Positions 35,190 to 53,693 of a stretch of DNA of 64,000 nucleotides are shown piece after piece. Numbering within the stretch: position 1 is the first letter of the stretch; each line of letters opens with the position of its first letter. The notes under the pieces were generated by a model that saw only the letters and a list, made by a program, of their open reading frames with translations, was not told where the DNA came from and made no database searches. Source of the stretch: Candidatus Omnitrophota bacterium (GTDB lineage Bacteria; Omnitrophota; Gorgyraeia; 2-01-FULL-45-10). The position numbers and the translations under genes were made by a program. Location of the stretch: assembly GCA_030695905.1 (NCBI GenBank), contig JAUYOL010000001.1:66023-130022 (forward strand), in the 5' to 3' direction.

Positions 35190-36725
35190 ATGGCAAAAAA
35201 TAAGAATACAAATGGTGATTTGAACTTTGAGCCGAAGCTGTGGCAGACGGCTGATAAGATGCGTAATAACATGGACGCTGCCGAATATAAGCATGTGGTG
35301 TTAGGGCTTATCTTCCTTAAATATATATCAGATGCCTTCAGTGAGCTTTATCAGAAATTAGCTGGTACCAAAGGCGCGGACGCTGAGGATCCGGACGAAT
35401 ACAGGGCCGAAAACGTATTCTACGTCCCAAAAAAGGCCCGATGGGATTATCTGCAGAAAAACGCGAAACAGCCCACCATTGGCAAGTTTATTGATGATGC
35501 AATGGATGAAATCGAGAAGGATAACTCCACCCTGAAAGGCGTTCTTCCTAAAAACTATGCCCGGCCGGCCCTTGATAAACAGCGTCTCGGAGAACTCATC
35601 GACCTTATTGGGACAATTGGCCTTGGTGACAAAGAAAATCGAAGCAAGGACATCTTGGGCCGTGTATATGAGTATTTCCTGGGCCAATTTGCGGATGCGG
35701 AGGGCAAGAAAGGCGGACAATTCTATACTCCGCGCAGTATAGTGCGCTTGCTTGTCGAAATGCTCGAGCCATATAAAGGTCGGGTATTTGATCCATGCTG
35801 CGGATCGGGCGGCATGTTCGTCCAAGGCGAGAAATTTGTGCAGATACATGGTGGCCGAATTGGCGATATTGCCGTATATGGACAGGAATCAAACCAAACA
35901 ACATGGCGTCTTTGCAAAATGAATCTTGCTATTCGTGGTATCGATGCCAACATCGCATGGAACAACGAAGGCAGCTTCTTAAATGACGCTCACAAGGACC
36001 TTAAGGCCGACTTTGTCATCGCTAACCCTCCGTTTAACGACAGCGACTGGAAGGGCGAACTTTTACGCGAAGATATTCGCTGGAAATATGGGACGCCACC
36101 TATGGGCAATGCAAACTTTGCATGGGTTCAACACTTCATTCATCATCTTTCACCCACAGGGCTGGCTGGCTTTGTCTTGGCTAATGGCGCTATGTCGTCT
36201 AACGCTTCAGGTGAAGGCGATATCAGAAAAAGTATCATAGAAGCAGATATCGTGGATTGTATGGTGGCCCTACCCTCACAGCTTTTCTATAACACTATGA
36301 TACCGGCATGTCTTTGGTTTATCGTGCGTGATAAGAAAAATCACAAATTCAGAGATCGACGCGGTGAAACACTTTTTATCGACGCTCGCAATATGGGCGC
36401 CATGATCGACCGCAGGCACCGCGAACTTACGGACGACGATATTACCAAGGTCGTTGGCACATATCATGCTTGGCGTAGCAAGGGTGGTAAATATAAGGAT
36501 ATAGCCGGATTCTGCAAATCAGCGAAACTATCAGAAATTCAAAAGCATGGCCACATTCTCACCCCGGGCCGTTATGTGGGGGCTGCTGAGGTTGCGGAGG
36601 ACGATGAGGTATTTGAAAATAAGATGAAGCGTCTCACGGGTGAGTTGTCAGAGCAGTTTAAACAATCGGATAAGCTTGAGGCAGAGATCAAAAAGAATCT
36701 CAAAGGCTTAGGATATGAAATTTGA
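35190..36725 (+). CDS. hsdM: type I restriction-modification N6-adenine methyltransferase subunit
   Basis: HsdM N-terminal domain. Catalytic NPPFN. SAM motif [10 protein letters not shown]. Confidence 0.9.
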
Positions 36726-36755
36726 AAGCTAGAGAATATTATTCCGATAGTAAAA

Positions 36756-37619
36756 ATGGCGGTTTTTATGTATGCATATAATTTTAAACCGAAACAGAAA
36801 GCGATAAATTTTAAAGAAATTTTTGTTGTAATGCCATTCGGAAGCAAATACGACGATATTTATGAGAAATTGATTGTGCCAGCAACTGAAAAAGCGAATG
36901 GCATACTGTCTTATAGTGGTAGTCAGCGGTTGCTTCCCTACAGATCCAAAGATGATATACGAACAACTTCTGGCTGGATTAATGTATTAGAGCATTTATT
37001 AACGGCGCAAATAGTTCTCGGGGTCCTTACTGATAATAATCCTAATGTGTTTTATGAGCTGGGGATAGCGCACGCTACAGAACCAATTACTCGTCAAATC
37101 CTCGTAGCGCCGAAACAATATGAGCGGCAATTTGATTTAAAAGATCTTATTTACTACGAGTATGAAGATGAGCTTGATAAAAGTATTGACCCATTGGCTA
37201 GTCGAATAGCAGACGCTATCAAAAGCTACAACATTGATGAGGAAAAAAAGATTAACCAAGCACGAATGCTCATCGGTCCTTATGAATTTGAGGTGCTGAT
37301 GACGCAGGGAAGCAAAAGGAACTTTGTATTGCATACATCAGTAAAAGGCCGTGAAGACTACGAGAAAGAACTTTTGGCAAGGTTGGGCGAAGAACATTTA
37401 AAAGGAGCGTTTGAAAGGCATGTTCCTGCAATAGCCAATCTTTGTAGCCACGGGTTTCTTGGCCTTCACACATCTTCCGAACGAAAGGACGATAAAACCG
37501 TTGTTCATTTTTCTTATCATTGGACAGAGTTAGGCAATAGCTTACTTTATTTTATGAAATTAATACCGATTGAGGAATTGAGAGCTAGGCGCGATGGAAT
37601 GCCAGCATATTTTGATTAA
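36756..37619 (+). CDS. hypothetical protein inserted between hsdM and hsdS; N-terminal TIR-like / nucleoside 2-deoxyribosyltransferase-like pattern
   Basis: IFVVMPFGSKYDDIY ... VLGVLTDNNPNVFYELGIAHA resembles the NDT/TIR-like (SLOG-fold) signature. Weak assignment. Confidence 0.45.
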   Translation: MAVFMYAYNFKPKQKAINFKEIFVVMPFGSKYDDIYEKLIVPATEKANGILSYSGSQRLLPYRSKDDIRTTSGWINVLEHLLTAQIVLGVLTDNNPNVFYELGIAHATEPITRQILVAPKQYERQFDLKDLIYYEYEDELDKSIDPLASRIADAIKSYNIDEEKKINQARMLIGPYEFEVLMTQGSKRNFVLHTSVKGREDYEKELLARLGEEHLKGAFERHVPAIANLCSHGFLGLHTSSERKDDKTVVHFSYHWTELGNSLLYFMKLIPIEELRARRDGMPAYFD

Positions 37620-37623
37620 ATCT

Positions 37624-38937
37624 ATGAACAAAAATTTCAAACAAACAAAACTTTGTGAAACTCCTGAAGGGTGGGATATCCAAGCCATTGCGGATTTACC
37701 CATTGAGATTATTGATGGTGATCGAGGGCTAAATTATCCTAAGAAAGATGAATTTAAAAAACAGGGGTTTTGTCTATTTCTTAGTACTAAAAATGTCCCA
37801 GGAGAACATTTTGATTTTACCGAAGCTGATTTTATTAACGAGGAACGGGATCGTCTCTTACGAAAAGGTAAATTAAAAAAAGAAGATATTGTCCTTACAA
37901 CGCGTGGCACAGTAGGTAATATTGCGTATTATCATGAACAAATTCCTTACGAACACATTCGTATAAATTCTGGAATGGTTATAATTCGCAATATGGGAGA
38001 CAAATTTGATACGGGTTATCTATGCCATCTTTTGAAAAGCCCTATAGTGAAACAGCAATACCTTAGCTTTGCTACTGGATCGGCACAACCACAGTTGCCG
38101 ATCAGGGATATTAACAAAATTAGACTAACAGTACCTTCTATTTTAGAACAGCGTGCCATTGCCAAAATCCTTTCTGACCTTGATGATAAAATAGAACTCA
38201 ATCACCGGATGAACAAAACCCTCGAATCCATCGTGCAGGCGACTTTTAAGCGGTGGTTTGTAGATTTTGAATTTCCAGATGAACATGGTAATCCATATAA
38301 AACATCTGGTGGAAAGATGACTGACTCTGATCTCGATGAGATCCCTGATGGATGGACTGTTAAGGAAATATCTGATTGCGGAGAAATTGTATGTGGAAAA
38401 ACACCTCCGACGGTTGACAAAGACAATTATGGCAATGATTTATTCTTTATAACCATACCAGATATGCGCGGGCAAGCGTTTGTAATAAAAACGGAACGAA
38501 AACTCTCTAAAAAAGGAGCTTCGACGCAAAATAAAAAAGAATTGCCGGCTCTAACTATTTGCGTAAGTTGCATTGCGACCCCCGGCCTAGTTTCCTTGAC
38601 CAGCGCCCCCAGCCACACAAACCAACAAATTAACAGCATTGTTTGTAATAAAAATATTAGCCCATTTTTTATGTACTACACAATGCTTTATAAGAGTGAA
38701 GAAATAAAGACTATGGGCCTTGGTGGTACCGCAACGCTAAATCTTAATACGGGAAATTTTGCGCGCATTAAAATAGTCGTACCGGAAAAGACAATCACGG
38801 ACGCTTTTCATAAAACAGCAACACCTTTTATGGAAAAGATTTTGTCTAATTTGAAAGAAAATGAAAGTCTTTACATTATTCGCGGTTCTCTTTTACCAAG
38901 GTTAATGTCAGGAAAAATAAGGCTAGGTAAAAATTAA
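37624..38937 (+). CDS. hsdS: type I restriction-modification specificity subunit
   Basis: Two target-recognition domains separated by conserved coiled regions. Possible alternative start at 37594. Confidence 0.75.
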   Translation: MNKNFKQTKLCETPEGWDIQAIADLPIEIIDGDRGLNYPKKDEFKKQGFCLFLSTKNVPGEHFDFTEADFINEERDRLLRKGKLKKEDIVLTTRGTVGNIAYYHEQIPYEHIRINSGMVIIRNMGDKFDTGYLCHLLKSPIVKQQYLSFATGSAQPQLPIRDINKIRLTVPSILEQRAIAKILSDLDDKIELNHRMNKTLESIVQATFKRWFVDFEFPDEHGNPYKTSGGKMTDSDLDEIPDGWTVKEISDCGEIVCGKTPPTVDKDNYGNDLFFITIPDMRGQAFVIKTERKLSKKGASTQNKKELPALTICVSCIATPGLVSLTSAPSHTNQQINSIVCNKNISPFFMYYTMLYKSEEIKTMGLGGTATLNLNTGNFARIKIVVPEKTITDAFHKTATPFMEKILSNLKENESLYIIRGSLLPRLMSGKIRLGKN

Positions 38938-38955
38938 TTTTATAGGAGGCGGCAA

Positions 38956-40416
38956 ATGGTGAAAAGTTCTTGGACTTCAGATGATACAAAAACATTAGAT
39001 ATTTTACTGGATTACCAAAATTCTCGAATAGACGCCAATGAGAAATCATCGCAGGAAGAAATAAGAAAGTTATTATTAAAGACAGAAGATGTCATTGACC
39101 TTGCTAATAGCATAATCGCTACTAAAGGGCTTTTGCGAGGAGAAAGAATAATTATTGTTAAAGAAGATGGCAATTCTATAGTCCTAGAAGGCAATCGCAG
39201 AACTTGTGCTTGCCAACTATTACTAAGCCCAGAATTAATTCCAAAAGAATTTAGAACAAAATTCCCTATTTGTCATGACGGAGGGATAAAAAAAGAACTA
39301 GAGCATTTAAAATCTGATATTGCGCCAGATAGATTGGCAGCGGAAATTACTATTACCAAGAGGCATACTGAACCGGGAGTTTCGCAATGGACTCCCATTG
39401 CGAAACAAAGAAGAATTACGCGTCTTGTTGAGGCAAGGAGATCTATTGAAGAGTTAATGTCTGAATTTGGAATGACACGGTCAAACATTTTGAAAACTTT
39501 GAAAGATTATCATATTTTTCAATATGCAAAAAATCTTTCCATTTGGAACAAGGTTGAAAAAGATATTTTGAACGATCCAACTCTCTCAATCAATCCTTTC
39601 ACTCGGTTTTTTGATTTAAAGGGTGTTAAGAAAGCCTTGGAATTGAAACATAAAGAAACTGGCGAATTGGAAATCGAGATAAAAAAAGAACTTTTTGACA
39701 AAATCATAGCTTTTATTGCCCGCGAATTTTTAATTCCCGATAAAGGCACAAGTAAGCTTGGTGCAAATACTCGCACAACGCCAGAAGAGTTGTTTCAAAG
39801 TATTTCTTCACATGATAAAGATATAAGAGCATTTCTAAAAAAGAAGCTAAAATTGGATAATTTGAAGAATAAGGAAAAAGCTAAATCTGGGGCCGAATCA
39901 GCAGAACAAACAGGTACGGCTAGGACTTCAGGTGCAACAGCTTCTACGCAAACATCGGCAAAGTCTGGAAAGTTCTTTGAAAATCTTCCCTGTCCTTTAA
40001 AAGATAACCAGCTATTGTTAGTTGTGAATGAAATATCGGATATAAATTATAAGAAATATCGCCTATCAGCAACCTTTCTTGTAAGAGCTTTAGTTGAAAG
40101 AATCTTGAATCATTGCATCGACAAATATGCGCTTAAGAAACAATTGCTAAAGGAGTTTTACACTAAGCGCAAGGGGTGTAAAGGCATAGAACCAGGGCTA
40201 GAGTTTGTGGTTGATTTTTGTATAAAAAATCATGATCAAATGTTCAATGTAAATACAGTACGAAATATTCTAAGAAAATGGAAAGGGGATAAGGATCTAT
40301 TAGATATTATCATTCATGGTCGTTGGGCCAATCCTAGCATTACAAACCTTGAACATTTCGCATCTCTCATTCGACCTACGGTTGAACAAATTCTTAGCGG
40401 GAATGCTTTGAAATGA
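38956..40416 (+). CDS. ParB/Srx-like N-terminal domain protein (486 aa) embedded in RM operon
   Basis: VLEGNRRTCA matches the ParB-N/DGQHR-like DGxxR signature. Low-complexity Ser/Thr/Ala linker. Unknown C-terminal domain. Confidence 0.45.
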   Translation: MVKSSWTSDDTKTLDILLDYQNSRIDANEKSSQEEIRKLLLKTEDVIDLANSIIATKGLLRGERIIIVKEDGNSIVLEGNRRTCACQLLLSPELIPKEFRTKFPICHDGGIKKELEHLKSDIAPDRLAAEITITKRHTEPGVSQWTPIAKQRRITRLVEARRSIEELMSEFGMTRSNILKTLKDYHIFQYAKNLSIWNKVEKDILNDPTLSINPFTRFFDLKGVKKALELKHKETGELEIEIKKELFDKIIAFIAREFLIPDKGTSKLGANTRTTPEELFQSISSHDKDIRAFLKKKLKLDNLKNKEKAKSGAESAEQTGTARTSGATASTQTSAKSGKFFENLPCPLKDNQLLLVVNEISDINYKKYRLSATFLVRALVERILNHCIDKYALKKQLLKEFYTKRKGCKGIEPGLEFVVDFCIKNHDQMFNVNTVRNILRKWKGDKDLLDIIIHGRWANPSITNLEHFASLIRPTVEQILSGNALK

Positions 40417-41342
40417 AAATCGAGCAAGAAAATAAAGCTCTGAATAATAAAACAATAACAACCAATCTGAGCCCATTAAGGTATCCAGGTTCAAAGCGGA
40501 AGATAGCTTTGTATATTAGAGAAATCCTTCAACATAACAAGCTAACTCCCGATCTCCTTGTGGAACCATTTGTCGGTGGCGGTAGCATTTCTCTATTTTT
40601 TATTGCCAATAATTTTGTAAAAAAAATTATTATTTCAGATAAAGATAGATTAATTAGCAGTTTTTGGAAGGTAGTTTTTTCTAATCCAGACAGCATCAAC
40701 CGTTTCATTCAACATGTAAAAATTAATCTTAAAAATTTTGATAAGTATAAAAATATCGCAAAAGATACTGAGAATTATAATGAAACTGAATTAGCAAAAG
40801 CATGCATTTTTCTCAACAGAACTAGCTTCTCAGGCGTTTTAGCTAATCCTGCTGGCCCTCTTGGCGGAAGAGAGCAGAGGTCGGACTACAAAATCGATTG
40901 CCGCTTTAATAGAAAAACCATCGTAAAGAAAATTAGTTGCATCGCATCTTTTAAGAGCAGGGTTATTGTTCGTAATGGCCACTGGAAAGATATAATAAAG
41001 TATGCAGAAGGTTGGCGCAAGGATAATAAGGGGTATAAAAAAACATTCATATACCTAGATCCGCCTTTCTATTTAAAAGGAGAAAGTTTATATAGAAATT
41101 ATTTTGAAACCAATCAACACGAAGAACTATCTAAAGAATTGGAGAAAATAACCTGCCCATGGATTTTAAGTTATGATAATGTCTTACAAGTTAGAAAACT
41201 ATATGAGAATTTTAAAAACATCGTTTATATCGACATGCCATATTCAATTAATTCGCATGCTAATAGAATTGAAAAAGAATTGATAATTACTAACTTAAGT
41301 TTGCCCAAGGTAAACGAAATGAGCTTTCATAATAAGCAATGA
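40413..41342 (+). CDS. D12-class (Dam-like) N6-adenine DNA methyltransferase
   Basis: RYPGSKRK ... EPFVGGGS (motif I) and YLDPPF (motif IV). Confidence 0.7.
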
Positions 41343-44300
41343 AAAAAATTACAGAATATGAAATCGAGCAGGTCGCCTTAGATATCCTTTCAGAGCTTAA
41401 ATATAAGGTTATCTACGGGCCGGATATTGCCCCGGATGGGCCGAAGCCAGAGAGACAGAGTTATGCCGATATTGTCCTACTTGTTAGGCTTCGCGAGGCA
41501 ATAAATCAGTTTAATCCTAATATTCCTGCCGAAGCAAAGGATGAAGCAATAAAGCGGATATTACGGACTGAAAGCCCTGACCTTGTAATAAATAATCATC
41601 GCTTTCACAAGATGCTTGTTGATGGTGTTGATGTAGAATATCGCAAAGACGGCCGGATTACCGGCGATAAGGTATGGCTCTTCGACTTTGCAAATCCGAA
41701 TAATAATGAATTCTTAGCGATTAACCAGTTTACCATTATCGAAAATAATATTAATCGCAGGCCTGATATTATTCTCTTTGTGAATGGTCTGCCGATCGTG
41801 GTAATAGAGCTAAAAAATCCGGCTGATGAAAATGCCACTACCTTAACCGCTTTCAAACAATTCCAAACGTATAAACTCCAGATACCCTCTCTTTTTAAGT
41901 TTAACGAGATTTTAGTCGCAAGCGATGGTATTGACGCAAAAGCTGGGACGATAACCTCTGACTGGGAGCGATTCTTGCCATGGAAGACGATCGATGGCAC
42001 CGAGAAGGCATCAAAGGTAATGCCACAGATAGAGGTTTTATTAAAAGGCATGTTTAATAAAAAGGTTTTGCTCGATCTTATCCGGTACTTCGTCGTCTTC
42101 GAGCAGGATAAGGATACTAAAGACAATACGGTTAAAATTTCAAAGAAGATTGCGGCTTATCATCAATATCATGCCGTTAATAAAGCCATCGACGCTACTA
42201 TTAAGGCATCCCGAGCCAGGGGTGATAAGCGTTGCGGTGTAGTTTGGCACACACAGGGTTCGGGCAAAAGCCTTATTATGGCCTTTTATACGGGTAAACT
42301 TGTTTTGAGTTTGGACAATCCCACAGTAGTTGTCTTAACCGATAGAAATGACTTAGATGATCAGCTCTTCGGCACATTCTCCCGATGCAATGAATTGTTG
42401 CGACAAGCGCCAGCGCAAGCAGAATCTCGTGCAAAACTGCAAGAATATCTTAAAGTTTCATCCGGCGGCATTGTATTTACCACTATTCAAAAATTCTTCC
42501 CGGAAGAAAAAGGCGACCAATACCCTCTTCTATCCGAACGTCGTAATATAATTGTCATCGCCGATGAGGCTCACAGAAGCCAGTATGATTTTATTGATGG
42601 TTTTGCCAAGCACATGCGCGACGCCCTACCAAATGCTTCATTTATCGGATTTACTGGCACACCCATAGAACGACACGATCGTAACACTATTGCTGTCTTT
42701 GGTGATTACATTGATATTTATGATATTGAGCAGGCAGTTAACGATGGCGCTACAGTTCGGATATACTACGAGAGCCGGCTTGCTATGCTTGAGCTAAAGG
42801 ATGAGGAACGGCCTAAGATTGATCCCGAGTTTGAAGAAGTCACTGAAGGCGAAGAGTTCAAGAAAAAGGAAAAGCTGAAGACCAGATGGGCCCGGCTTGA
42901 AGCCATTGTTGGAAGTGAAAAGCGTATTAAGCAGATCGCCAAAGATATAGTGAATCATTTCGAAAGCCGTCTTACGGCTGTCGAGGGTAAAGGTATGATT
43001 GTCTGTATGAGCCGGCGAATAGCAATTGATCTTCATAATGAAATTATTAAGCTAAGACCTCAATGGTATAACAAAGATGATGACAAGGGCTTCCTAAAGG
43101 TTATTATGACGGGCTCTGCCAGCGACCCTGTCGAGTGGCAAGAACATATCAGAAATAAACAAAGGCGCAGGGATATTGGTGATCGTATGAAAGATCCAAG
43201 CGATCCGCTGAAATTAGCAATCGTGCGGGATATGTGGCTTACAGGATTTGATGCACCGTCGCTTCATACAATGTATATAGACAAGCCAATGCGGGGCCAC
43301 GGTCTTATGCAAGCTATTGCGCGCGTAAATCGTGTATTTAAGGATAAGCCGGGTGGTCTTGTAGTCGATTATTTAGGTATAGCCGATGATTTAAAGCGTG
43401 CGCTCGCAGAGTATACAGAAAGCGGCGGTAAAGGCAAGCCAGCGTTTAAGCAAGAAGACGCGGTGGCTTTAATGCTCGAGAAATATGAAGTCGTTTGTGG
43501 GATGTTTGATAAATTCAATTATAAAAAATTCTTTCCCGCCCCTGTAAAAGACAAGATGTCTATTATAACACTGGCACAGGAGCACATATTAAAGCAGAAA
43601 AATGGCAAGGAGCGATTGATGGCCTATGTGACACAACTCTCGCAGGCCTTCGCGCTTTCGGTACCGCATAAAGAGGCCTTAAAAATAAGGGATGACGTGG
43701 GATTCTTTCAAGCAGTCCGGGCCCGGCTGGCAAAGTATGAGACCGGCACAGGCAAAACCGAAGAAGATCTCGACTCGGCAATAAAGCAAATTATCTCAAA
43801 GGCTATCATTTCGGACAAAGTAATTGATATATTCGAAGCAGCCGGTCTTAAGAAGCCGGACATTTCTATTCTGTCGGACGAATTTTTGGCCGAAGTTAAA
43901 GGGATGCCACATAAGAACCTTGCCTTCGAACTTTTAAAGAAATTACTCAATGATGAAATCAGGACGAGATCTCGCAAAAATCTTATTCAGGGCCGATCAT
44001 TCGCTGAAATGCTCGAGAAGGCCATTAAGAAGTACCAGAATAAGGCCATAGAAGCAGCCAAAGTCATCGAAGAACTGATTGAGCTTGCCAAAAAGATGCG
44101 CGAGGCCGATAAGCGTGGCGAAGATCTCGGGCTGAATGAGGACGAGATTGCGTTTTACGATGCTCTGGAGGTTAATGACAGCGCTGTAAAGGTATTAGGA
44201 GACGAGATCTTAAAAACTATTGCCCGGGAGCTCGTTCAGACGGTTCGTAATAATGTTAGTATCGACTGGACCTTAAAGGAAAGCATTCAGGCAAAGCTAC

Positions 44301-44932
44301 GGGTTATGGTAAAAAGGATATTACGCAAGCACGGCTACCCTCCGGATAAGGAAAAGAAAGCCACCGAGACTGTTTTAGAGCAGGCTACCTTATTAGGCAA
44401 GGACTGGGCCGAGAAACCAGAAGAATCCGTAGAAAAATCAGATCTATTCTTTAGCGATGTGATCGATAAGGCGACTTTCGAAGAGGATTATTTGCCTATT
44501 TATGATTTGCAGGCGGTTGCGACATCGTTCCGAGAGCAAACCACACCAACAATTAAAGGCTGGAAGCCGATAAAGGGCCGTAATATTAATAAAGATATGT
44601 TTATCGCTCAGGTTGTCGGTAAATCTATGGAGCCAACGATACAAGATGGCAGCTGGTGTATTTTCCGTTTTGATCGTGGCGGTTCGCGCAATGGTTTGGT
44701 AGTGCTTGCCGAATCGCGGTTAGTATCTGATCCGGAAACGAGTCAAAACTTTACCATTAAGCGCTACAAGAGCGAAAAAGAAGATCTCGGCCAGGGCCAG
44801 TGGAGACATAAACGTATTACCCTATCGCCGGACAATAAGACTTTTAACGATATTGTGCTTGAAAACGTTGCCGGTGACGATTTTCGGATTGTAGCTGAAT
44901 TTATAGAGATATTGAAGATTAGGAGTATTTGA
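41339..44932 (+). CDS. hsdR: type I restriction enzyme R subunit fused to C-terminal LexA/S24-like peptidase domain
   Basis: Res-III/DEAD motifs (GSGKS, DEAH) and helicase C. The last ~147 aa (44489-44932) carry GKSMEP ... KRYK ... the S24 Ser/Lys dyad pattern. Confidence 0.8.
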
Positions 44933-45013
44933 CCAAGGGTGATTAGATAGGTGCCTTGAAAGATAGTGGGAAACGTATCGAGTAAAATATTTGTAGCCAA
45001 AAGGTATATTTTC

Positions 45014-46768
45014 ATGACAATGGTTGCAGTATGTCTTTTCAAAGAAGGTGGCGTATTAATCTCCGATTCTCGGGCAACCAAGGATAATAATGGTAAATAC
45101 GCATTTAGCGATACTCTTCAAAAAATTCTCTACATTCGCAAAAATATTGCTCTTTCATATGCAGGTGACGTTCAAATTGCCGGAGATGTTGCAAGAGAAG
45201 TACGGTTAAAGGTTATCGGAGATGACAATCTTAAAGAGCCGCAAACCCTAGCGGCGAAAATACCGACAATTGCCACCCTATCATATCTCAAATATGTATT
45301 TATTAGAGGTAGGCCCTGCGCTGTATATTTACTGCTGGCAGGAGTTGATTCTTCGGGAAAAACATATGCATGGGTTTTTAAGTCACCCGGTTTTAAACCA
45401 ATAAAGATTGAAAATGGTTTCGATGTAATTGGTTCGGGAGAGGTAGTTGTTCCATATTTGGAAAAAAGTTATAAAAATATAGATAGCTCCCATAACGATC
45501 TTAAGTCTAAAGCAGATGCATTAATAGTCGGGCTTGAGAGTGAGCTACAAAAACACGATGTAAACACAGTCGGTGGACTTTTTCAGGTTGTTCTTCTTAC
45601 CCCCGAAGGAATACGTCCCCTTCGTTATGGGTTCATGGACTTAGATCCACTTAAAAGTGGTGATGCAAAAAGTATGGAATTGATCAAGGGGAAATGGACA
45701 CAGACAAATGAGGCAACGCGAGAAAAAGTAGAGCTTTTAGAACCATCTAAACTTGTCACCAATGTTTTTAAAGAGACGCAATTTCATGAATATGCGCCAC
45801 CCAATCAGGATAAAAAAATTCCAAAATGGTATTCATACTATTTTATTACATGTTCAAAAGTCAAAAGGGATATTACTACGACAGAATTTCAGGGTGTATT
45901 AACACAAATAGCCAGTTTAAGATATCCGGCCACTATACCCATTATTGCATCCATGGGATTTTGGGGTACTGCCGGTGAGAATCAAATAGAATTGCGAGTG
46001 GAAAAAGACGGAAAACAAGAAACGATTTATTCCAAAAAAATCCATACAGAATATTTACCCGAAATAGTTGAATTGGATGCAGAAATAAAGCTTGTTATTA
46101 GTTCGCCAGGGCCCGCATTCTTAGAGTTCTTAATTAATAAGCAGGTTCTTGCTAGAAAAGCTCTTTATTTTGGCAATCTCAACGGCATTCCAAAATCCGA
46201 TGGGGATAAAGAAGAATTTCTCAGAGAGCGTCAATCACAGCTCACAGAGGAACACCGACAACTTTCGGATGCTTTTTTGAATGACAAAAATTCTGTTACT
46301 GAATATTTCGTCTTATGTGAGAACTGCATTCATGAGGGAAATGTAATTAAATTTATCAATGAAATGAAAGCGGTTTATTGGAAATCATACCCGCTACCTT
46401 TACGGGTATATATTGCTAGTGCAATCAGAATGCCAAAAGGCAAACATAGTATCCGCATAGAGTTAGTGAATGCGGCGACTCGATATAACTCAAACATAAC
46501 AAACACTACTGTAGAAAACACATCCGATTGCTTAGTTACTCCTATCCATGGCGAAATGGTTGTGAATATACCAGAGCCCGGTATTTATTTTTTCAATCTA
46601 TACGTTGATGGCAAATTTATTACAAGTGCGCTTCTTCCAGCGGAGCTCTCGAAAGCCAAATATTCTTACAGTCTGACAGATGAGGGAGAAAAAATGGTTG
46701 AGTCTGGAGAGTTAATAATTTTGCCAAGACGGTCTATTTTAGAAAGCGAAATAAAGAATAACAAATAA
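45014..46768 (+). CDS. HslV/proteasome-beta-like Ntn-hydrolase domain fused to ~400-aa unknown C-terminal domain
   Basis: N-terminal MTMVAV ... ISDSRAT ... K ... SYAGDVQIAGD ... IGSGE aligns with HslV Thr1/Asp17/Lys33/GSGG. No adjacent HslU. Confidence 0.55.
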   Translation: MTMVAVCLFKEGGVLISDSRATKDNNGKYAFSDTLQKILYIRKNIALSYAGDVQIAGDVAREVRLKVIGDDNLKEPQTLAAKIPTIATLSYLKYVFIRGRPCAVYLLLAGVDSSGKTYAWVFKSPGFKPIKIENGFDVIGSGEVVVPYLEKSYKNIDSSHNDLKSKADALIVGLESELQKHDVNTVGGLFQVVLLTPEGIRPLRYGFMDLDPLKSGDAKSMELIKGKWTQTNEATREKVELLEPSKLVTNVFKETQFHEYAPPNQDKKIPKWYSYYFITCSKVKRDITTTEFQGVLTQIASLRYPATIPIIASMGFWGTAGENQIELRVEKDGKQETIYSKKIHTEYLPEIVELDAEIKLVISSPGPAFLEFLINKQVLARKALYFGNLNGIPKSDGDKEEFLRERQSQLTEEHRQLSDAFLNDKNSVTEYFVLCENCIHEGNVIKFINEMKAVYWKSYPLPLRVYIASAIRMPKGKHSIRIELVNAATRYNSNITNTTVENTSDCLVTPIHGEMVVNIPEPGIYFFNLYVDGKFITSALLPAELSKAKYSYSLTDEGEKMVESGELIILPRRSILESEIKNNK

Positions 46769-47056
46769 AATCACCCCCCCCAATCAACTTTTCTTATGCG
46801 CGCATTTATATACAGCGAACGATGCATAATAATTTAAATGTTTACGGGTCCTTGGAAGGCGGGTCGGGCGCGGCACAAATATTTATTAAAATAGAGACAG
46901 CGCCGTTTTTCAAAAATAAATAGTCGCTGGCCCTATTTTCAGTTAATGAAGTCTAACCAATGGGAATAGTGACCGGACGCTATTCGGACACCGGTAATTG
47001 CATGTTATATATTCACAAAGTCAGGTTAGTAGTGTATAATATAATTGAGGTGAAAA

Positions 47057-47755
47057 ATGGGCAAGGTATACAAAAATGCTCCATTAGTTGAAGCGGTTTT
47101 TGAAATGCGCTTTCCCGCTGATCTAAACATAGAATGCGCCAGATCAAATTTCTATGAGAGCATAAAAAAGGATTTTCCTAACATCTTTGTCCCGAATGCT
47201 CAATTCGGACAGGCGCTTGCGCTACAACCATATGAGTTTAAGAGCGCGGATCATAAGAAAGTCATACGTTTTTCAATAAATAGCTTCGCTTTCCATACGA
47301 GTGATTACTCAGGCGGGTTTGAGCTATTCGAAGAAGAGTGTCTTAAATACATTAATCTGTTCATAAAATTCTTTAAAATCTCTACATTGAACCGCATGGG
47401 TCTTCGTTATATTAACAGAATAGCTATTATGCGCAAAGATGGCTTAATACCAATCGGTGAATACTTAAACTTTGGTTTTGAACTGCCGGACAGCATGTCA
47501 AGCGATCCAGAGATATTTCATGCGTTGCTTATTAACAAAGTGGGTGATGGTAAGTTGCGAACTCTTATTCAATATCAAGAAGTACCGCCCAAGAACGAAG
47601 TAATACTGTTAGATTTCGATTATTACTACGAGGACAAAATAAAGGCTATAGATTTCCCTAAATATCTTACGCAGGCGCATAAGCATATAAAAGAGGATGT
47701 GTTCAAGAAATTGATAAGCGAAAATTATATGAAAGCGTTAGAGGCTAAAGGATGA
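47057..47755 (+). CDS. TIGR04255-like conserved hypothetical protein
   Basis: N-terminus YKNAPLVEAVFEMRFP is the signature I recall for that family. First gene of three overlapping genes. Confidence 0.45.
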   Translation: MGKVYKNAPLVEAVFEMRFPADLNIECARSNFYESIKKDFPNIFVPNAQFGQALALQPYEFKSADHKKVIRFSINSFAFHTSDYSGGFELFEEECLKYINLFIKFFKISTLNRMGLRYINRIAIMRKDGLIPIGEYLNFGFELPDSMSSDPEIFHALLINKVGDGKLRTLIQYQEVPPKNEVILLDFDYYYEDKIKAIDFPKYLTQAHKHIKEDVFKKLISENYMKALEAKG

Positions 47756-48264
47756 TAAAGACAATATCTGCTACTTTTCACGGCGAAGACTATACGAAAT
47801 TAGCAAGAAATCTATCTTTCAGGGTAGAAGAAAATGCTGTGCCTGCAGGGGTTAAGTTGGATAGAAATGTCTTTGAAGAGGTGTTGGATTTAATGCGCGT
47901 TGAATATCAGAAGCCTGATGACGTGATGCCTGCTAAGCCAGATGCGCTGTCATTGGACTGTATTGTACCCGACGCAGTTTTTACGGTAAATCAGAGCGTT
48001 TTTACATATCCTATTTTTTCATTACCACACTGCCAACTAAAGCACCCTATACAGATTGTCATTGAAGCAAAAGAGGACGGTAATGTTATTGTTTGGAGCG
48101 ATGAGTTCGAGTTGTCGGGCTTGGGCGGAACAAAGGAAGAAGCGCTTGCGGATTTCAGTTCTTTTGTATTCTCTGATCGTAATTCATTAAGAAAGATACC
48201 GACGGATAAACTTAGTGATGGCGCGAAAGATTTATTGCGTAGATATGAAGAATATTTAGAATAG
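47752..48264 (+). CDS. hypothetical protein (operon partner)
   Basis: ATGA overlap with the upstream gene. Confidence 0.4.
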   Translation: MIKTISATFHGEDYTKLARNLSFRVEENAVPAGVKLDRNVFEEVLDLMRVEYQKPDDVMPAKPDALSLDCIVPDAVFTVNQSVFTYPIFSLPHCQLKHPIQIVIEAKEDGNVIVWSDEFELSGLGGTKEEALADFSSFVFSDRNSLRKIPTDKLSDGAKDLLRRYEEYLE

Positions 48265-48266
48265 CA

Positions 48267-48554
48267 ATGCAGATAAAGAAAAAGATAATTGAACGAGGAT
48301 TGTTAGGCAAAGGGTTTGCCCAAGATAACACCGATCACGAGATATTAAGGTTAGTGGTAGACGGCAAAACTACTAAAGTAAGAACAAAGCTTTCCTTCGG
48401 CTCTAAGTATAAAGATTATGGTGATACGCTATTAGATTGCGTAAAGAAACAGCTTCACTTTGGGACTAAGACGCAACTTGTTAGATTGATAGATTGTACG
48501 ACAAGGCATGAGGAGTATGTAGCGTATCTCAGAACACTTGGCGTATGTCTCTAA
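48267..48554 (+). CDS. hypothetical protein (operon partner)
   Basis: 2-nt spacing from the upstream gene. Confidence 0.35.
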   Translation: MQIKKKIIERGLLGKGFAQDNTDHEILRLVVDGKTTKVRTKLSFGSKYKDYGDTLLDCVKKQLHFGTKTQLVRLIDCTTRHEEYVAYLRTLGVCL

Positions 48555-48693
48555 ATAAATAATAAAAGCGAATAATAGGCAACCCGAGGGGTTGCTTTTT
48601 TATTGTATTCAAAAATAAATAATCGATAGTCCTATTTTTTATTTGACCTACCTGAAATATCGCGATTTTCCCGTTTAAAGCCAATCCCCATTA

Positions 48694-49066
48694 TTGCTAC
48701 TCCGTAGCAACGACCCCATTGTCAAAATAATTCGTTATTGTAAGATAGGTATAGAAACACATAGGTTGAATTTGTCCATTTTGTGGTAACGACCCTATTG
48801 CAAAAGAAACCTGCTGTTGTAGAATTGTGATGAGGCGGGGTTTTTCTTTTTTTATCCCCGACACTTTAACAGGAAAACCGGTATATACGTTGTAGGAGGG
48901 GGCATTTGAGCGAAAAAATCTGTATATACGTTTTGAGAAATAATTGCGGAAACCCCGACATTTTAGCAGGAAAACCGGAATATACGTTATAGGCGCGGAT
49001 GAAGAAAGTGAAAAAAGTGAAAATATTTCCGGCACTTTTGCATAAAACGTCGTATATAGCTAGTAG
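48694..49066. repeat. iteron-like direct repeats and GTATATAC palindromes upstream of replication gene
   Basis: Two ~41-bp direct repeats at 48856 and 48952. Four GTATATA(C/G) cores. 24-bp direct repeats at 48704 and 48784. Confidence 0.5.
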
Positions 49067-49077
49067 GAGGCATTGAA

Positions 49078-49311
49078 ATGGTGACCGGGAAGCATTTTGA
49101 AGCGGGAAACCTCTATCTGGCTACGTATCTTTTCTTTTGCGGGTTTGCTATGAAGGGGATTGCGGGATCGGGCCGGCTTAAGAGGATCCTGTTTGACGAT
49201 ATCCCTGCCGTGCATAAGGCCTGTGAGGAGTTTTACGCCGATTCAGACGCGCGCAAGTTGTTTGACTGTTACCGGAGGGTAAAGGATTACTTATTTCAGA
49301 ACGGAGTTTAA
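49078..49311 (+). CDS. hypothetical small protein
   Basis: ORF with a GGAGG ribosome-binding site. Confidence 0.4.
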   Translation: MVTGKHFEAGNLYLATYLFFCGFAMKGIAGSGRLKRILFDDIPAVHKACEEFYADSDARKLFDCYRRVKDYLFQNGV

Positions 49312-49313
49312 CG

Positions 49314-51689
49314 ATGGAAGTCGAGAGAAGAGTAGAGAAGAGATGGATCAGCGAGAATATTCCTGCCGAATTAAAGGATCTGCCGATCTGGGTTGGTTTT
49401 AAGTTTATTCCGCAGGAAGGTCAAAAGCCCCGCAAAGAGCCGTTCAATGCCGCGACCGGCGGCAAAGCCTGTTCGAATAATCCAAAAACATGGCGGTCAT
49501 TTGATGAGGTTATCGGAAGGGCCGAATCAATGCATTTTAATGCCATTGGGATTGGGCTTTCTGAGCCGTACGTTGGCGTAGACCTCGACCATTCCGTTGT
49601 TGATGGAGATATCCAGCCATGGGCCCAAAAGATCATATCGATCATCGATAGTTATACCGAATTCTCTCCCAGCAAAACAGGTGTTCATATTCTTTGTAAA
49701 GGTACGCTTCAAAAGGGACGCAAATTCAGCGCACTTAATATCGAAATGTATCAGAAGACCCGGTTTTTTACGGTTACCGGAGACGTTGTGCCTGAATGCA
49801 GGTCAGAGATCATGGATCGAAGCGGGCAGATCACGAAATTATTCGAAGAGTGTGAGCAGAAGGACAATGAGAAGAGGCAATCAAAATCAATCCTCGACCG
49901 CATATTGAAAAGCCAAGACGCGGAGAAGTTTCAGAAGCTTTTCTCGGGCCAGTGGCAGGATTTATATCCTTCTCAGTCTGAGGCAGACCTTGCGTTGTGC
50001 AACAAGCTGGCCTTTTGGACCGGCAAGGATCCGGCGCTTATGGATTCGCTCTTCCGTAAATCCGGCCTTATGAGGCTCAAGTGGGATGAGAAGCATTTCG
50101 GTGACGGCAGGACATACGGCCAGTCGGTAATAGAGAAAGCGATTAGCGGTTGCCGAGATGTTTATAGCGGCTCTCAAGAGATAACCACAAAACATAAACT
50201 TACACAGGGCGAGATCATCACCCGTGATTGTGAAGAGAAGATTACGGATTTCTTCAGGGATCAGCATGGCAATACTTTCGTCGTGCTTCCGGTTGAGGGC
50301 CACCTTGAGGTATGCCCGACATCAAGCGGTCGCTTTAGGAATTGGAAAGCAACACGTTTTCGTGAGAGGTTCGGTGTCCCGCCAAAAAACGAAGCCATTA
50401 TTCAGGCGCGGATTCAAGTGGAGGCGCGCTGTGGGTGCGGCAAGCAGGTGGAATTATTTAATCGTATAGGCTGGCATGAAGGCAAAATCTATTATGACCT
50501 TACTACTCCTGATTATCGTGGTGTAGCTATTGATGAAAACGGCTGGAATGTCGTCTTCTTACCGCCAATATTCAGGCGTTACCAGCATCAAGCACAGCAG
50601 GTCATTCCGGTTAATGACGGAGATCCGAAAGAGATCTTACGCTTTTGTAATGTGGGTCCGGATGATCACTGCCTTTTTATGGTCGCGATCGCGTCTTTCT
50701 TCATTCCGAACATCCCACATGTGATCATAAGCCAGACCGGCGAGCAGGGTTCCGGCAAGTCCAACAATTCCCGCAAGATCAAGGGTTTGGGCGACCCATC
50801 ACGCGTTATGCTCATCTCGACTCCAAAGGACTTGGAGCAGGCGCAGATGACGGCCGAGAAGCACTGGATCAGCACTTTCGACAATATCTCCAAAATTCAT
50901 GAATGGTTTAGCGACTTCCTGTGTCGTGGCGTTACCGGCGAGGGCGACATGAAGCGCAGTCTTTATACCAATGACGATGAGTTTATCCGGTCATACCGCC
51001 GTTGTTTTGTCTTAAACGGCATCGGCGTTTCAATGTGGCGCGGGGATTTGCTCGACCGCGCGGTTATCTTCGATATACCGGTCCTAAAGGATGCCCGGCC
51101 GGAGCGAGTCATGGATGACGAATGGCAAAAAGCCTTGCCCGGGATCCTCGGAGGCTTCTTTACAGCTATTTCAAAGGCTATGAGAACAGTTTCGCAAGTT
51201 ACCGGCCATGAGAAGTTCCGCATGGCCGATTTTGCCCAGTGGGGCGGCGCTCTGGCTCAAGAGCTCGGCTATTCGAGAGACGAATTCTTTAAGAAATATC
51301 AGGAATCCGTCAAAGGTAAATGGCAGGACACAGCCGAGGACAGCGTCTTTGCCAAAAAGATAATGGATCTTATGGATAGGCGCAACGGCTATTGGGAGGG
51401 TTCAGCGGCAGAGCTTTTGCATGAGATAACGCCGGATAGCGGTGAAGAGAAGGGCATACCCAAAACAGCCAAGTGGCTTTCAACTGAGCTGGTGCGTATC
51501 GCTCCGGTCATGCGTAATGTTGGGGTTGATATTGTGAAGAATGAGAAGCGCGAGCCGGGCACCGGCAGGCGTATCTTTATACTTAAAAGAACAGGGCCAA
51601 AGAGCTGTGAGGATCGGTGTGAGCAGAGTGTGAGCAGCGGCTTGTTTTGTGAGGATCGCGTGGGGGTAGACAGTGATCGGCCGTTCTGA
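49314..51689 (+). CDS. prim-pol (bifunctional primase/polymerase)-type replication protein with P-loop NTPase domain
   Basis: N-terminal LPIWVGFK ... VDLDH ... SPSKTGVHIL prim-pol pattern. GEQGSGKS Walker A in the middle. Confidence 0.65.
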   Translation: MEVERRVEKRWISENIPAELKDLPIWVGFKFIPQEGQKPRKEPFNAATGGKACSNNPKTWRSFDEVIGRAESMHFNAIGIGLSEPYVGVDLDHSVVDGDIQPWAQKIISIIDSYTEFSPSKTGVHILCKGTLQKGRKFSALNIEMYQKTRFFTVTGDVVPECRSEIMDRSGQITKLFEECEQKDNEKRQSKSILDRILKSQDAEKFQKLFSGQWQDLYPSQSEADLALCNKLAFWTGKDPALMDSLFRKSGLMRLKWDEKHFGDGRTYGQSVIEKAISGCRDVYSGSQEITTKHKLTQGEIITRDCEEKITDFFRDQHGNTFVVLPVEGHLEVCPTSSGRFRNWKATRFRERFGVPPKNEAIIQARIQVEARCGCGKQVELFNRIGWHEGKIYYDLTTPDYRGVAIDENGWNVVFLPPIFRRYQHQAQQVIPVNDGDPKEILRFCNVGPDDHCLFMVAIASFFIPNIPHVIISQTGEQGSGKSNNSRKIKGLGDPSRVMLISTPKDLEQAQMTAEKHWISTFDNISKIHEWFSDFLCRGVTGEGDMKRSLYTNDDEFIRSYRRCFVLNGIGVSMWRGDLLDRAVIFDIPVLKDARPERVMDDEWQKALPGILGGFFTAISKAMRTVSQVTGHEKFRMADFAQWGGALAQELGYSRDEFFKKYQESVKGKWQDTAEDSVFAKKIMDLMDRRNGYWEGSAAELLHEITPDSGEEKGIPKTAKWLSTELVRIAPVMRNVGVDIVKNEKREPGTGRRIFILKRTGPKSCEDRCEQSVSSGLFCEDRVGVDSDRPF

Positions 51690-52512: not shown

Positions 52513-53616
52513 ATGATATATAAACGAGGCAAAACATGGTACATAGGTTACTCCGCTAACGGGCGGTTGATGCGGGAAGCGGTTGGTGAGTCGCGGAAAT
52601 TCGCCGAGCTTGTTCTTGGCAAGAAACGGGCCGAGGTCAGAGAGGGCCGTTTCCTCGATGTCAAGAAACACGCGAAGATCAAGTTTGAGGATTTCGCTAA
52701 GACATTTGTGGAGCTCCATTCAAAGGTTAATAAAAGGCCCAGAGTCGCCAAGAGAGACGAACAACTCATAAAACGCCTGTCCGGGCATTTCGCGGGCAAG
52801 TATCTGTACGAGATAACATCCAAGCAGATAGAAGAATATAAAAAAGTCCGTAAAGAGACTAAGCTCAAGGATAAGTTTATTGCCGCGGCGACCGTAAACA
52901 GAGAATTGGCATGTCTCAAGTGCATGTTTAATAAAGCGATCGAATGGGGCAAGGCAGATGAGAACCCTGTCCGTAAGGTGAAGTTATTTAAAGAGAATAA
53001 TAAACGCTTGAGGTTTCTTGAAAGAGAAGAGATACCAAAGTTCTTGGATAGCGCGGCCCCGCATCTAAAGCCGATCCTGATAGTCGCATTATTTACCGGT
53101 ATGCGTAAGTCGGAGATCCTGACTCTCCAATGGAAGAATATCAACTTTGGGCAGGGCATAATATATTTGCTCCACACTAAGAATGGCGAGCGCAGAGAAG
53201 TGCTGATGAACGATATCGTCAAAAAGACACTTATTGCCGTTCCTAAAAATCCCAGCAGCCCATATATATTCTGTCACGAGGACGGTAAGCCCTACCTGAA
53301 TGTCCGAAAATCTTTTGACGCAGTTTTGAAAAAATGTGATATAATTGACTTCAAATTCCACGATCTGAGGCACACATTCGCCTCGCACCTAGTTATGTTC
53401 GGTATAGACATAAAGACAGTGCAGGAGCTGATGGGCCATAAGTCCATTGAGATGACGCTCCGCTATTCGCATCTATCGCCGGATCACAAAAAGAGGGCCG
53501 TGGAGATCTTAGGAAATAGAATTAGCACAAATATAGCACAAACGCCTAAAACGGCAAATACAAGCGAGATAGGCGAATCGCCTAACTCGTTGAAAGAATT
53601 AGAGTTAGTGCATTAA
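52513..53616 (+). CDS. int: tyrosine-type site-specific integrase
   Basis: C-terminal catalytic motifs HDLRHTFAS and LMGHKSIEMTLRYSHL. Ends 2 nt before tRNA-Thr. Confidence 0.9.
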   Translation: MIYKRGKTWYIGYSANGRLMREAVGESRKFAELVLGKKRAEVREGRFLDVKKHAKIKFEDFAKTFVELHSKVNKRPRVAKRDEQLIKRLSGHFAGKYLYEITSKQIEEYKKVRKETKLKDKFIAAATVNRELACLKCMFNKAIEWGKADENPVRKVKLFKENNKRLRFLEREEIPKFLDSAAPHLKPILIVALFTGMRKSEILTLQWKNINFGQGIIYLLHTKNGERREVLMNDIVKKTLIAVPKNPSSPYIFCHEDGKPYLNVRKSFDAVLKKCDIIDFKFHDLRHTFASHLVMFGIDIKTVQELMGHKSIEMTLRYSHLSPDHKKRAVEILGNRISTNIAQTPKTANTSEIGESPNSLKELELVH

Positions 53617-53617
53617 T

Positions 53618-53693
53618 GCTGGCGTAGCTCAGTTGGTAGAGCAGCGGTTTCGTAAACCGCAGGTCGATGGTTCAACTCCATTCGCCAGCTCCA
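53618..53693 (+). tRNA. tRNA-Thr (anticodon CGT); attR within 5' half
   Basis: Cloverleaf with loop ttCGTaa, T-loop TTCAACT and CCA. Confidence 0.85.

Follow-up and report, generated by a model that had tools for sequence, protein, structure and literature searches.

Structure of the Locus

The window analyzed here is a 64,000 nt stretch of a Candidatus Omnitrophota contig (JAUYOL010000001.1). It carries on its forward strand a cassette of three genes, ORF1 (47057-47755, 232 aa), ORF2 (47752-48264, 170 aa), and ORF3 (48267-48554, 95 aa). ORF1, the first gene, overlaps ORF2 by 4 nt (ATGA), and the gap between ORF2 and ORF3 is 2 nt. The cassette is located inside an integrative island, with a proteasome-like (HslV) fusion gene on one side and a replication module on the other. 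A preliminary description of this DNA had placed a compact three-gene operon with overlapping or 2 nt junctions at this position in the island, and both the layout and the setting agree with the coordinates found here. It had also expected no housekeeping annotation for the trio, and there is none; ORF2 and ORF3 are labeled "hypothetical" in GenBank.

A sigma-70-type promoter-like site precedes ORF1 on the same strand (47012-47040). The site is predicted by a consensus scan, from a consensus match of 11/12, and consists of a −35 TTCACA (47012-47017), a 17 nt spacer and a −10 TATAAT (47035-47040). The tgtataat sequence previously described as a TGn extended −10 is indeed present (47033-47040), but it is not a canonical one because the TG (47033-47034) directly adjoins the −10 hexamer. 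The promoter scan tool flagged no TG at this site. Downstream of ORF3, also on the forward strand, is an intrinsic-terminator-like hairpin (48577-48597; a stem of 9 pairs, 5 of them GC) with a T-run to 48607. A block of DNA homology with an Omnitrophica locus (L078) takes in this hairpin and ends at 48605. The cassette is bracketed by a 31 nt direct repeat (family D3 of the repeat search), with a left copy at 46909-46939 and a right copy at 48608-48638, both on the forward strand and 27/31 identical. These are the only two copies in the window, and each lies right after a terminator. No structured RNA was found with Rfam over 46500-49400.

Conservation and Co-inheritance of the Trio

The trio is intact in 59/62 informative genome loci anchored on ORF1, which span more than 10 phyla. 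It is likewise present in 45/50 metagenome loci anchored on the toxin gene (ORF3), which were gathered with a narrow ORF3 alignment. The 4 nt overlap between ORF1 and ORF2 recurs in 40/60 loci. The flanks of the trio in other genomes are heterogeneous and otherwise unrelated, and no fourth conserved gene was found around it in the ORF1-anchored loci. The distance matrices of the three genes are correlated (r 0.78-0.87, Mantel p ≤ 0.001). The preliminary description had made the existence of a module depend on the three families co-occurring in other genomes, and they do. The ORFs are real genes and not chance reading frames, since all three are kept in the same order and with tight junctions in ~60 genomes of many phyla, and the cassette as a unit is real, widely transferred and horizontally mobile.

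It is very improbable that the three ORFs are mere neighbors, functionally unrelated or engaged in housekeeping. The missing annotation of ORF2 and ORF3 is all that speaks for this reading. Against it, the three genes keep one order, orientation and set of junctions in ~60 genomes from more than 10 phyla amid unrelated flanks, the reciprocal search from the toxin side agrees, and the genes are co-inherited.

ORF3, a Predicted HicA-Type Toxin

ORF3 is, judging by its sequence, an unannotated HicA of the Class 8 type, with predicted RNase activity and toxicity. Class 8 HicAs are about 95 aa long, have a dsRBD-like alpha-beta-beta-beta-alpha fold and a C-terminal helical extension, and are encoded behind a hicB gene that overlaps or is closely linked (Gerdes 2024, mBio 15:e03293-23; PMC10865869). 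ORF3 shares their size (95 aa), their C-terminal extension, which here contains a "CPM" region, and homology over the full length of HicA. The ORF3 family HMM matched 10/10 published Class 8 HicAs from end to end with 55-92 bits (E-values 4e−13 to 1.5e−24 at Z=1e6). This homology reaches the C-terminus (HMM positions 1-92), and the HicA of M. boonei is 37% identical to the window's ORF3. Four residues (G16, H24, K61, and Q62) are the same without exception in ORF3 and in the HicAs of Class 8, Class 7 and E. coli, and H24 is kept in at least 90% of 52 ORF3 family members. The His of the "GSH" region is catalytic in HicA, as studied in B. pseudomallei and E. coli.

The established family models capture these proteins poorly. 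The Pfam HicA_toxin model (PF07927) was matched by 20/52 ORF3 relatives, over profile positions 2-56 of 58; scores among the five matches listed were 14-21 bits (best E 1.1e−5), below the gathering score of 27 bits. The window's ORF3 itself gave no match to PF07927, and no HicA model was matched in an NCBIfam scan of the ORF3 family. A single-sequence, word-indexed search with ORF3 returned only a near-identical twin, and no ORF3 relatives were found in viral contigs. Apart from a weak match to 3k6q, nothing significant was found among PDB sequences, either with the single proteins or with the family profiles.

ORF2, a Predicted HicB-Type Antitoxin

ORF2 is, on the same kind of evidence, an unannotated HicB-type antitoxin with a putative neutralizing role. 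It is made up of a variable N-terminus (residues 1-80) and a conserved core (about 83-170), and members of its family are 130-182 aa long. In the AF2 model the core (pLDDT 76-89) has four beta-strands and two helices and forms a HicB-like beta-sheet with a G-x-T-x-x-EA motif, and residues 1-80 fall below a pLDDT of 50. With 32-51 bits, the core HMM of ORF2 matches the HicB-fold domain at the C-terminus of Class 8 HicB (aa about 255-342), and the core itself has the features of the HicB fold (partial RNase H / DUF1902-like). The Pfam PHD_like antitoxin model (PF12910) was matched by 24/53 ORF2 family members. The 3k6q antitoxin was matched to ORF2 both by profile, weakly, and by fold, with an rmsd of 2.5 Å over 61 columns. 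A direct Foldseek comparison links ORF2 to the 3k6q fold only weakly (E 0.66, probability 0.77), and the search with the whole ORF2 model is diluted because the N-terminus is disordered. No DNA-binding domain (HTH, RHH, or Phd/YefM) was detected in ORF2 or its family with Pfam or in the AF2 model. The ORF2 family diverges fastest of the three, with a mean identity of 29% vs. 43-46% for the other two.

Compared with canonical HicAB (E. coli K-12 hicAB), the pair shares the Gly/His/Lys-Gln positions of the toxin, the HicB-like beta-sheet core of the antitoxin, and the combination of a basic toxin (ORF3 pI 9.5; family median 9.4) with an acidic antitoxin (ORF2 pI 4.7; family median 5.3). It differs in having the antitoxin first and no HTH or RHH domain in it, in a toxin that is longer by ~35 aa, and in an obligate third gene. 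The E. coli proteins themselves show no significant similarity, whether HicA is compared with the ORF3 family profile or HicB with that of ORF2. These comparisons are with single E. coli sequences; the canonical HicAs in the collected loci were too few for a profile of their own.

The likeness to Class 8 hicBA is closer. In both, the antitoxin gene lies upstream and tightly linked and neither toxin nor antitoxin has a DNA-binding domain; the HicB-fold domain of Class 8 has its homolog in the ORF2 core. Class 8 HicB, however, unites its HicB fold with two further N-terminal domains in one polypeptide of 331-376 aa and is found mostly in Euryarchaeota (PMC10865869). ORF2, at 170 aa, is not such a long three-domain HicB, and a separate, non-homologous TIGR04255 gene stands ahead of the antitoxin here. 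Where bacteria encode ORF1 as a gene of its own, the archaeal proteins are extended by about 255 residues at the N-terminus. We rejected the notion that Class 8 HicB is a plain fusion of TIGR04255 and ORF2, as the ORF1 HMM gave no match to it (≤3 bits). The "replacement" of ORF1 by the N-terminal domains of Class 8 HicB is thus positional and not one of homology, because there is no sequence similarity between them. A three-gene, tricistronic form is absent from the 14 contexts described by Gerdes (Gerdes 2024, PMC10865869).

The preliminary description had called the function of the whole operon unknown. Since ORF2 and ORF3 are recognizable as a HicB/HicA-type pair of the Class 8 kind, that label is now limited to ORF1.

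ORF1 and the TIGR04255 Family

ORF1 is, by sequence, a full-length, bona fide member of TIGR04255, the family to which it had been assigned beforehand. Its NCBIfam score is 106.6 bits (cutoff 30 bits), and the alignment takes in profile positions 2-251 of 252. TIGR04255 is large (8,382 clusters at 50% identity), but no paper in the searched literature mentions it and no function is on record. A link between the family and toxin-antitoxin (TA)-like cassettes appears to be undescribed. Distant TIGR04255 members were all that phage and plasmid collections yielded for ORF1.

The AF2 model of ORF1 (pLDDT 92.5, pTM 0.87) predicts an alpha/beta protein with a duplicated TBP-like/helix-grip fold. Foldseek returned AdoMetDC, TBP, and Bet v 1-type folds at low TM-scores, and no close solved relative was found by PDB sequence and fold searches. 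A viral fold library gave TBP-like proteins, along with weak matches to CYTH and mRNA 5′-phosphatase. The invariant polar residues of ORF1 are R113, R117, Y118, N120, D186, D188, and H208. This cluster could mean that ORF1 is an enzyme, which would speak against a role as a passive sensor.

An enzymatic ORF1 might act, for example, on a nucleotide or phosphorylated small molecule and would control the TA pair through its product or substrate, as in signal-generating defense modules with swappable effectors. The invariant and near-invariant residues E12, E16, R18, R113, R117, D186, D188, H208, and K212, which are placed on beta-strands and one helix face, would suit such a protein. So would the enzyme family AdoMetDC as best PDB fold match (E 2.6e−5), the CYTH and mRNA 5′-phosphatase matches, and the standing of ORF1 as the most conserved part of the variable TIGR04255-headed cassettes described below. 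We nevertheless regard an enzyme as quite unlikely. The fold matches are of low quality (TM about 0.3; CYTH probability <0.1), no catalytic motif of a known type was identified in ORF1, and fusion and co-variation point to a physical link between ORF1 and ORF2.

The TBP-like fold invites a different reading, in which ORF1 regulates transcription of its own three-part TA operon, like omega or PaaR, and binds the operator through a TBP-like saddle because the HicB-fold antitoxin is without a DNA-binding domain. ORF1 is the first gene of the operon, its fold retrieves TBP and viral TBP-like proteins, and the lack of a recognizable DNA-binding domain in ORF2 has a counterpart in hicBA Classes 7 and 8, where Gerdes leaves it unexplained, while Classes 3-6 have such a domain (PMC10865869). 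Yet, with a median pI of 6.5 and a net charge of −1, ORF1 is close to neutral, unlike basic DNA binders, and several of its invariant residues are acidic. TBP is matched by Foldseek at a low TM-score of about 0.3, and a cassette from Acinetobacter keeps TIGR04255 though its second gene has its own Xre HTH. An autoregulator is therefore unlikely.

Proposed Role of ORF1 in the Cassette

Indications of what ORF1 does come from loci with altered architecture. In L090 and L093, two near-identical contigs that are the sole cases of an ORF1-ORF2 fusion, the C-terminal part of ORF1 is fused in-frame to the ORF2 core and the N-terminal segment of ORF2 is gone. ORF1 is also frameshifted there, so the locus may be decaying. 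In L120, ORF1 is missing and ORF2 is cut down to its core. These loci, together with the N-terminal extension of Class 8 HicB, suggest that ORF1 acts via ORF2.

We think it probable that the locus is a self-contained, mobile, tripartite TA cassette in which ORF1 is an obligate component acting through ORF2, most likely as an input module. The part given to ORF1 is read from the architecture of the cassette. ORF3 would be a ribosome-independent HicA-type RNase toxin of the Class 8 kind, with its C-terminal helical extension, and the C-terminal HicB-fold core of ORF2, which has no DNA-binding domain, would neutralize it. Translational coupling would hold the output of ORF1 in fixed proportion. 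ORF1 would dock on the variable, intrinsically disordered N-terminal segment of ORF2 and thereby gate the stability or release of the antitoxin. ORF1 would then most likely be the sensor or regulatory input that decides on toxin release, for example upon phage infection or loss of the island.

Tripartite TA modules with an accessory protein include TAC (with a SecB-like chaperone), omega-epsilon-zeta, and paaR-paaA-parE. The present cassette has in common with them three genes, predicted to be co-transcribed, and a third protein that would control the antitoxin or the operon. ORF1 is unrelated to SecB, omega, and PaaR by sequence and fold, and the gene order and the place of the antitoxin extension differ. 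The cassette is not a TAC module by its accessory protein either, as ORF1 has no SecB match in Pfam, NCBIfam, or among the PDB fold matches.

ORF1 could still be SecB-like in function, a dedicated chaperone or stabilizer that shields the disordered N-terminus of ORF2 from aggregation or proteolysis and whose titration would free the toxin. In keeping with this, residues 1-80 of ORF2 are modeled with low confidence and are variable, and it is this segment that is lost where ORF1 is fused (L090, L093) or missing (L120). The combination of a constant accessory gene with differing TA pairs is also the TAC pattern, in which a single accessory family is reported to occur with several TA families, HicAB among them (PMC5105189). 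Other features fit less well, and we consider a chaperone somewhat unlikely: ORF1 resembles SecB neither in sequence nor in fold, the cassette departs from TAC in having its accessory gene in front and the extension at the N-terminus, and a cluster of invariant charged residues is unexpected in a generic chaperone.

The cassette had been put forward earlier as a candidate small defense or accessory system. PADLOC-DB 2.0 gave no significant match, with only a spurious SspE match for ORF1 (E 0.008, 12 bits) and none for ORF2 or ORF3. Among the housekeeping genes that flank the trio in other genomes, the search for a defense-island signal met only scattered SNF2, Schlafen, nucleotidyltransferase, and IS genes. 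That the cassette is a defense system, possibly with a role in abortive infection, is a hypothesis.

Other TIGR04255-Headed Cassettes and Implications

Distant TIGR04255 genes also lead tight three-gene cassettes with other second and third genes. The third position is occupied by PIN in L001 and L165 and by PIN_3 in L066, and the second position has an Xre HTH in L080. Pfam searches of the alternative partner genes were mostly empty, and several partner families have no match. The third slot of these cassettes reads as a toxin slot, whose contents are swapped while the TIGR04255 gene stays. It is possible, although short of probable, that TIGR04255 is a general, unrecognized third component, a sensor or switch with a duplicated TBP-like fold that serves many antitoxin/toxin pairs (HicA, PIN, PIN_3, and several unknown effectors). 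If true, this would be a new, widespread class of tripartite TA or abortive-infection systems in bacteria and archaea. The swappable third gene would, moreover, offer a route to new toxins, given that several partner families are without a Pfam match.

For the window itself, two "hypothetical" genes can be given concrete predicted roles, as a HicB-type antitoxin and a HicA-type toxin. For TIGR04255, with its thousands of proteins and no literature, the cassette is a first functional context. One and the same role is apparently filled by a separate gene in bacteria and by the fused N-terminal domains of the archaeal Class 8 HicBs. The cassette also bears on the question raised by Gerdes of how hicBA modules without a DNA-binding domain are controlled. 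If ORF1 does gate the antitoxin, the cassette would be a compact model for the gain of input domains by type II TA modules.

Gene structure and conservation of the operon

ORF1 (47057-47755, 232 aa), ORF2 (47752-48264, 170 aa) and ORF3 (48267-48554, 95 aa) follow one another on the forward strand, with a 4 nt overlap (ATGA) between ORF1 and ORF2 and a 2 nt gap between ORF2 and ORF3. The preliminary description of three ORFs of these lengths with tight junctions is exact in its coordinates. Its "TGn extended -10" promoter is not, as the TG directly abuts the -10 hexamer. The promoter-like site is of the sigma-70 type and near consensus (47012-47040, forward strand; TTCACA, 17 nt, TATAAT; 11/12). 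By sequence pattern, positions 48577-48607 of the same strand hold a GC-rich terminator-like hairpin and its T-run. An Rfam search of the trio region found no structured RNA. ORF1 is named "TIGR04255 family protein" in GenBank and is a full-length member of that family (106.6 bits; cutoff 30), as had been proposed from its sequence. ORF2 and ORF3 are named "hypothetical" and, searched singly, have no significant match in Pfam, NCBIfam, PADLOC or the PDB.

A genome-wide scan with an alignment of the ORF1 subfamily returned 77 loci, in which the partners were placed by iterative HMMs. Relatives of ORF2 and ORF3 are directly downstream of ORF1 in 59/62 informative loci bearing a subfamily ORF1. 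The trio is found in Omnitrophota, Zixibacteria, Ignavibacteria, Planctomycetota, Elusimicrobiota, Nitrospirota, Acidobacteriota, Desulfobacterota, Spirochaetota, Actinomycetota, and others. ORF1 and ORF2 overlap by 4 nt in 40/60 cases. Conversely, a search of metagenomes with an ORF3 alignment yielded 80 loci, and all three genes are present in 45 of the 50 with sufficient upstream sequence. Matrices of pairwise distances are also correlated between the three proteins (r = 0.78-0.87, Mantel p ≤ 0.001). A lack of co-occurrence in other genomes had been named beforehand as a finding that would speak against the operon, and the three genes clearly do co-occur. Clustering of the flanking ORFs at trio loci gave no conserved fourth gene.

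Three loci (L150, L151, and L154) have an ORF3-type HicA gene without ORF1 or ORF2 upstream, followed by conserved ORFs of 86 and 904 aa. In L151 the gene is downstream of a partial ORF that is transposase-like as judged by eye only. These orphans may be remnants or toxins recruited into another system. A near-identical ORF1/ORF2 pair was deposited from a Gemmatimonadales MAG on a contig of 1,168 nt, and is either a very recent inter-phylum transfer or a binning artefact.

A predicted HicA-type toxin and its putative antitoxin

From its sequence relationships, ORF3 is a predicted HicA-type toxin. The Pfam HicA_toxin family is matched by 20/52 ORF3 family members (the next commonest family by 5); the matches are below the gathering score, yet they cover the whole profile in one register. 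Class 8 hicBA systems encode a HicA of ~95 aa with two extra C-terminal helices and a very long HicB (Gerdes, 2024; PMC10865869). Against the Class 8 sequences of Table S1 of that paper, the ORF3 HMM matches 10/10 HicAs over their full length (55-92 bits, E down to 1.5e-24 at Z = 1e6), and the ORF3 of the window is 37% identical to the HicA of Methanoregula boonei. ORF3 relatives share G16, H24, and K61-Q62 without exception with the HicAs of Class 8, Class 7, and E. coli. The ORF3 proteins are basic (median pI 9.4).

ORF2 is the predicted cognate antitoxin of ORF3. The antitoxin family PF12910 is matched by 24/53 ORF2 members (best E 6e-7), and 3k6q, the "antitoxin part of a putative TA system," is retrieved with the family profile as well as with the AF2 model. 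An HMM of the ORF2 core matches the C-terminal HicB-fold domain of Class 8 HicBs (aa ~260-335) at 32-51 bits. The AF2 model is confident only at residues 83-170, a region of four strands and two helices; the pLDDT of residues 1-80 is < 50, and this part varies within the family. ORF2 proteins are acidic (median pI 5.3) and evolve faster than ORF1 and ORF3, as is typical for antitoxins on both counts.

The ORF2/ORF3 pair belongs to a published hicBA class, although GenBank does not annotate it as such. Gerdes (2024; PMC10865869) describes 14 hicBA contexts, and a three-gene form with TIGR04255 is not one of them. In the literature searched we found neither a description of this form nor a mention of TIGR04255.

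ORF1 and other TIGR04255 cassettes

The AF2 model of ORF1 is confident (pLDDT 92.5, pTM 0.87) and consists of two similar halves (residues 10-106 and 110-229), each a beta-sheet with a long helix. Foldseek against the PDB returned AdoMetDC/prozyme (E 2.6e-5, TM ~0.3), TBP, and many Bet v 1/START proteins; against a viral library it returned giant-virus TBP, ASFV B263R, poxvirus ETF, and unnamed proteins (best TM 0.50/0.57). From the model we read the fold as a probable duplicated TBP-like/helix-grip, with no close characterised relative found in these searches. Invariant residues include R113, G115, R117, Y118, N120, D186, D188, and H208.

Clustered at 50% identity, the TIGR04255 family (E ≤ 1e-3) comprises 8,382 clusters, 138 of them at E ≤ 1e-30. 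Each distant TIGR04255 gene inspected heads a tight three-gene cassette with differing partners. Gene lengths, in order, are 236, 119-124, and 176-199 aa in cyanobacteria; ~232-255, 157-159, and 155-156 aa in L073 and L075; 248, 81, and 215 aa in a Bathyarchaeon; 247, 109, and 216 aa in Desulfobacula; 253, 182, and 172 aa on a Crinalium plasmid; and 262, 189, and 273 aa on an Acinetobacter plasmid. Loci L162, L164, and L165 hold more such cassettes. Gene 3 is a PIN domain protein in L001 (over the Pfam cutoff), where gene 2 is homologous to ORF2 but differs in its tail, and also in one of two L165 cassettes. L066 has PIN_3 in this place, and its sister loci have the same gene 2 and an unrelated gene 3. 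Gene 2 of the Acinetobacter cassette encodes an Xre/CI-type HTH. Judging by these variants, slot 3 acts as an interchangeable position for toxins, with slot 2 acting as the corresponding antitoxin or adaptor. The two cassettes of the L165 contig differ (246 > 112 > PIN and 272 > 233 > 155 aa) and lie on opposite strands, at 325-1920 (-) and 3501-5489 (+), amid other TA genes, e.g., PemK.

The island

The host is a Candidatus Omnitrophota MAG, and the trio sits within an integrative island of ~23 kb. The island is bounded on both sides by a 38 bp exact direct repeat (30551-30588 and 53618-53655), which matches tRNA-Thr(CGT) over its 5′ half, as far as the anticodon loop. The integrase gene (52513-53616) stops 2 nt ahead of the intact tRNA-Thr (53618-53693). 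Islands targeting tRNA genes usually duplicate the 3′ half, and duplication of the 5′ half is uncommon.

In order, the cargo is a Schlafen/AlbA_2 ATPase gene (31850-33205), a type I R-M operon, a proteasome-like/DUF6941 fusion, the trio, iterons, and a primase-polymerase. The R-M operon (35190-41342) is interrupted by additional genes. One ORF of 287 aa separates hsdM from hsdS, a second has 486 aa (both are unknown), and a gene for a Dam-like D12 methyltransferase comes ahead of hsdR. The restriction subunit (41339-44932; HSDR_N, SWI2/SNF2, T1RH-like_C) is fused to a C-terminal LexA-like S24 peptidase domain, which is unusual. The 600-aa fusion (44966-46768) joins an N-terminal proteasome/HslV-like domain to DUF6941 at its C-terminus. 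It is absent from the recurrent flank families of trio loci in other genomes and thus has no link to the trio elsewhere. Iteron-like arrays of three 46 nt and three 30 nt copies (48856-49072), the DUF5659 gene downstream of them (49078-49311), and the primase-polymerase with an NrS-1 HBD domain (49314-51689) are probably the replication origin region of the island. A Schlafen/AlbA_2 gene also lies between hsdM and hsdS in L164 (1053-2198), with a distant TIGR04255 cassette immediately next; this neighbourhood with type I R-M recurs in the island and in L164.

The trio is bracketed by a 31 nt direct repeat (46909-46939 and 48608-48638; 27/31 identical) with only two copies in the window, each right behind a terminator. 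The pair may be a scar or a cassette insertion site. At the DNA level, homology (76%) with another Omnitrophica locus, L078, covers only 47045-48605; this stretch begins 12 nt before ORF1 and ends a little beyond the terminator, and the flanks of L078 are unrelated. A defence role is only hypothetical for the trio, which has no match in PADLOC and mixed flanks in other genomes.

Possible function

L090 and L093 each encode an in-frame fusion of a C-terminal portion of ORF1 (HMM positions 89-223) with the core of ORF2; the N-terminal segment of ORF2 is gone. L120 lacks ORF1, and its ORF2 is cut down to a 101-aa core. Archaeal Class 8 HicBs have ~255 extra N-terminal residues that are not homologous to ORF1. 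Together these suggest that ORF2 is anchored to ORF1 through the variable ORF2 N-terminus, and that ORF1 is in role an accessory input domain of the antitoxin. ORF1 could instead be a transcriptional regulator, but a purely DNA-binding role is disfavoured by its near-neutral pI (median 6.5) and by the HTH that one cassette encodes in gene 2. A TAC-like chaperone and an enzyme are the other alternatives to an input domain.

In the proposed mechanism, the three proteins would be co-translated and assemble into one complex, where the HicA RNase would be masked by the HicB-fold core of ORF2. ORF1, held on the ORF2 N-terminus, would govern antitoxin stability or release upon a trigger, and freed HicA would cleave RNA and arrest growth. 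We file the trio as a probable tripartite type II TA system, and TIGR04255 may represent a new and broad class of input modules for TA systems. Growth arrest would serve abortive infection or island stabilisation.
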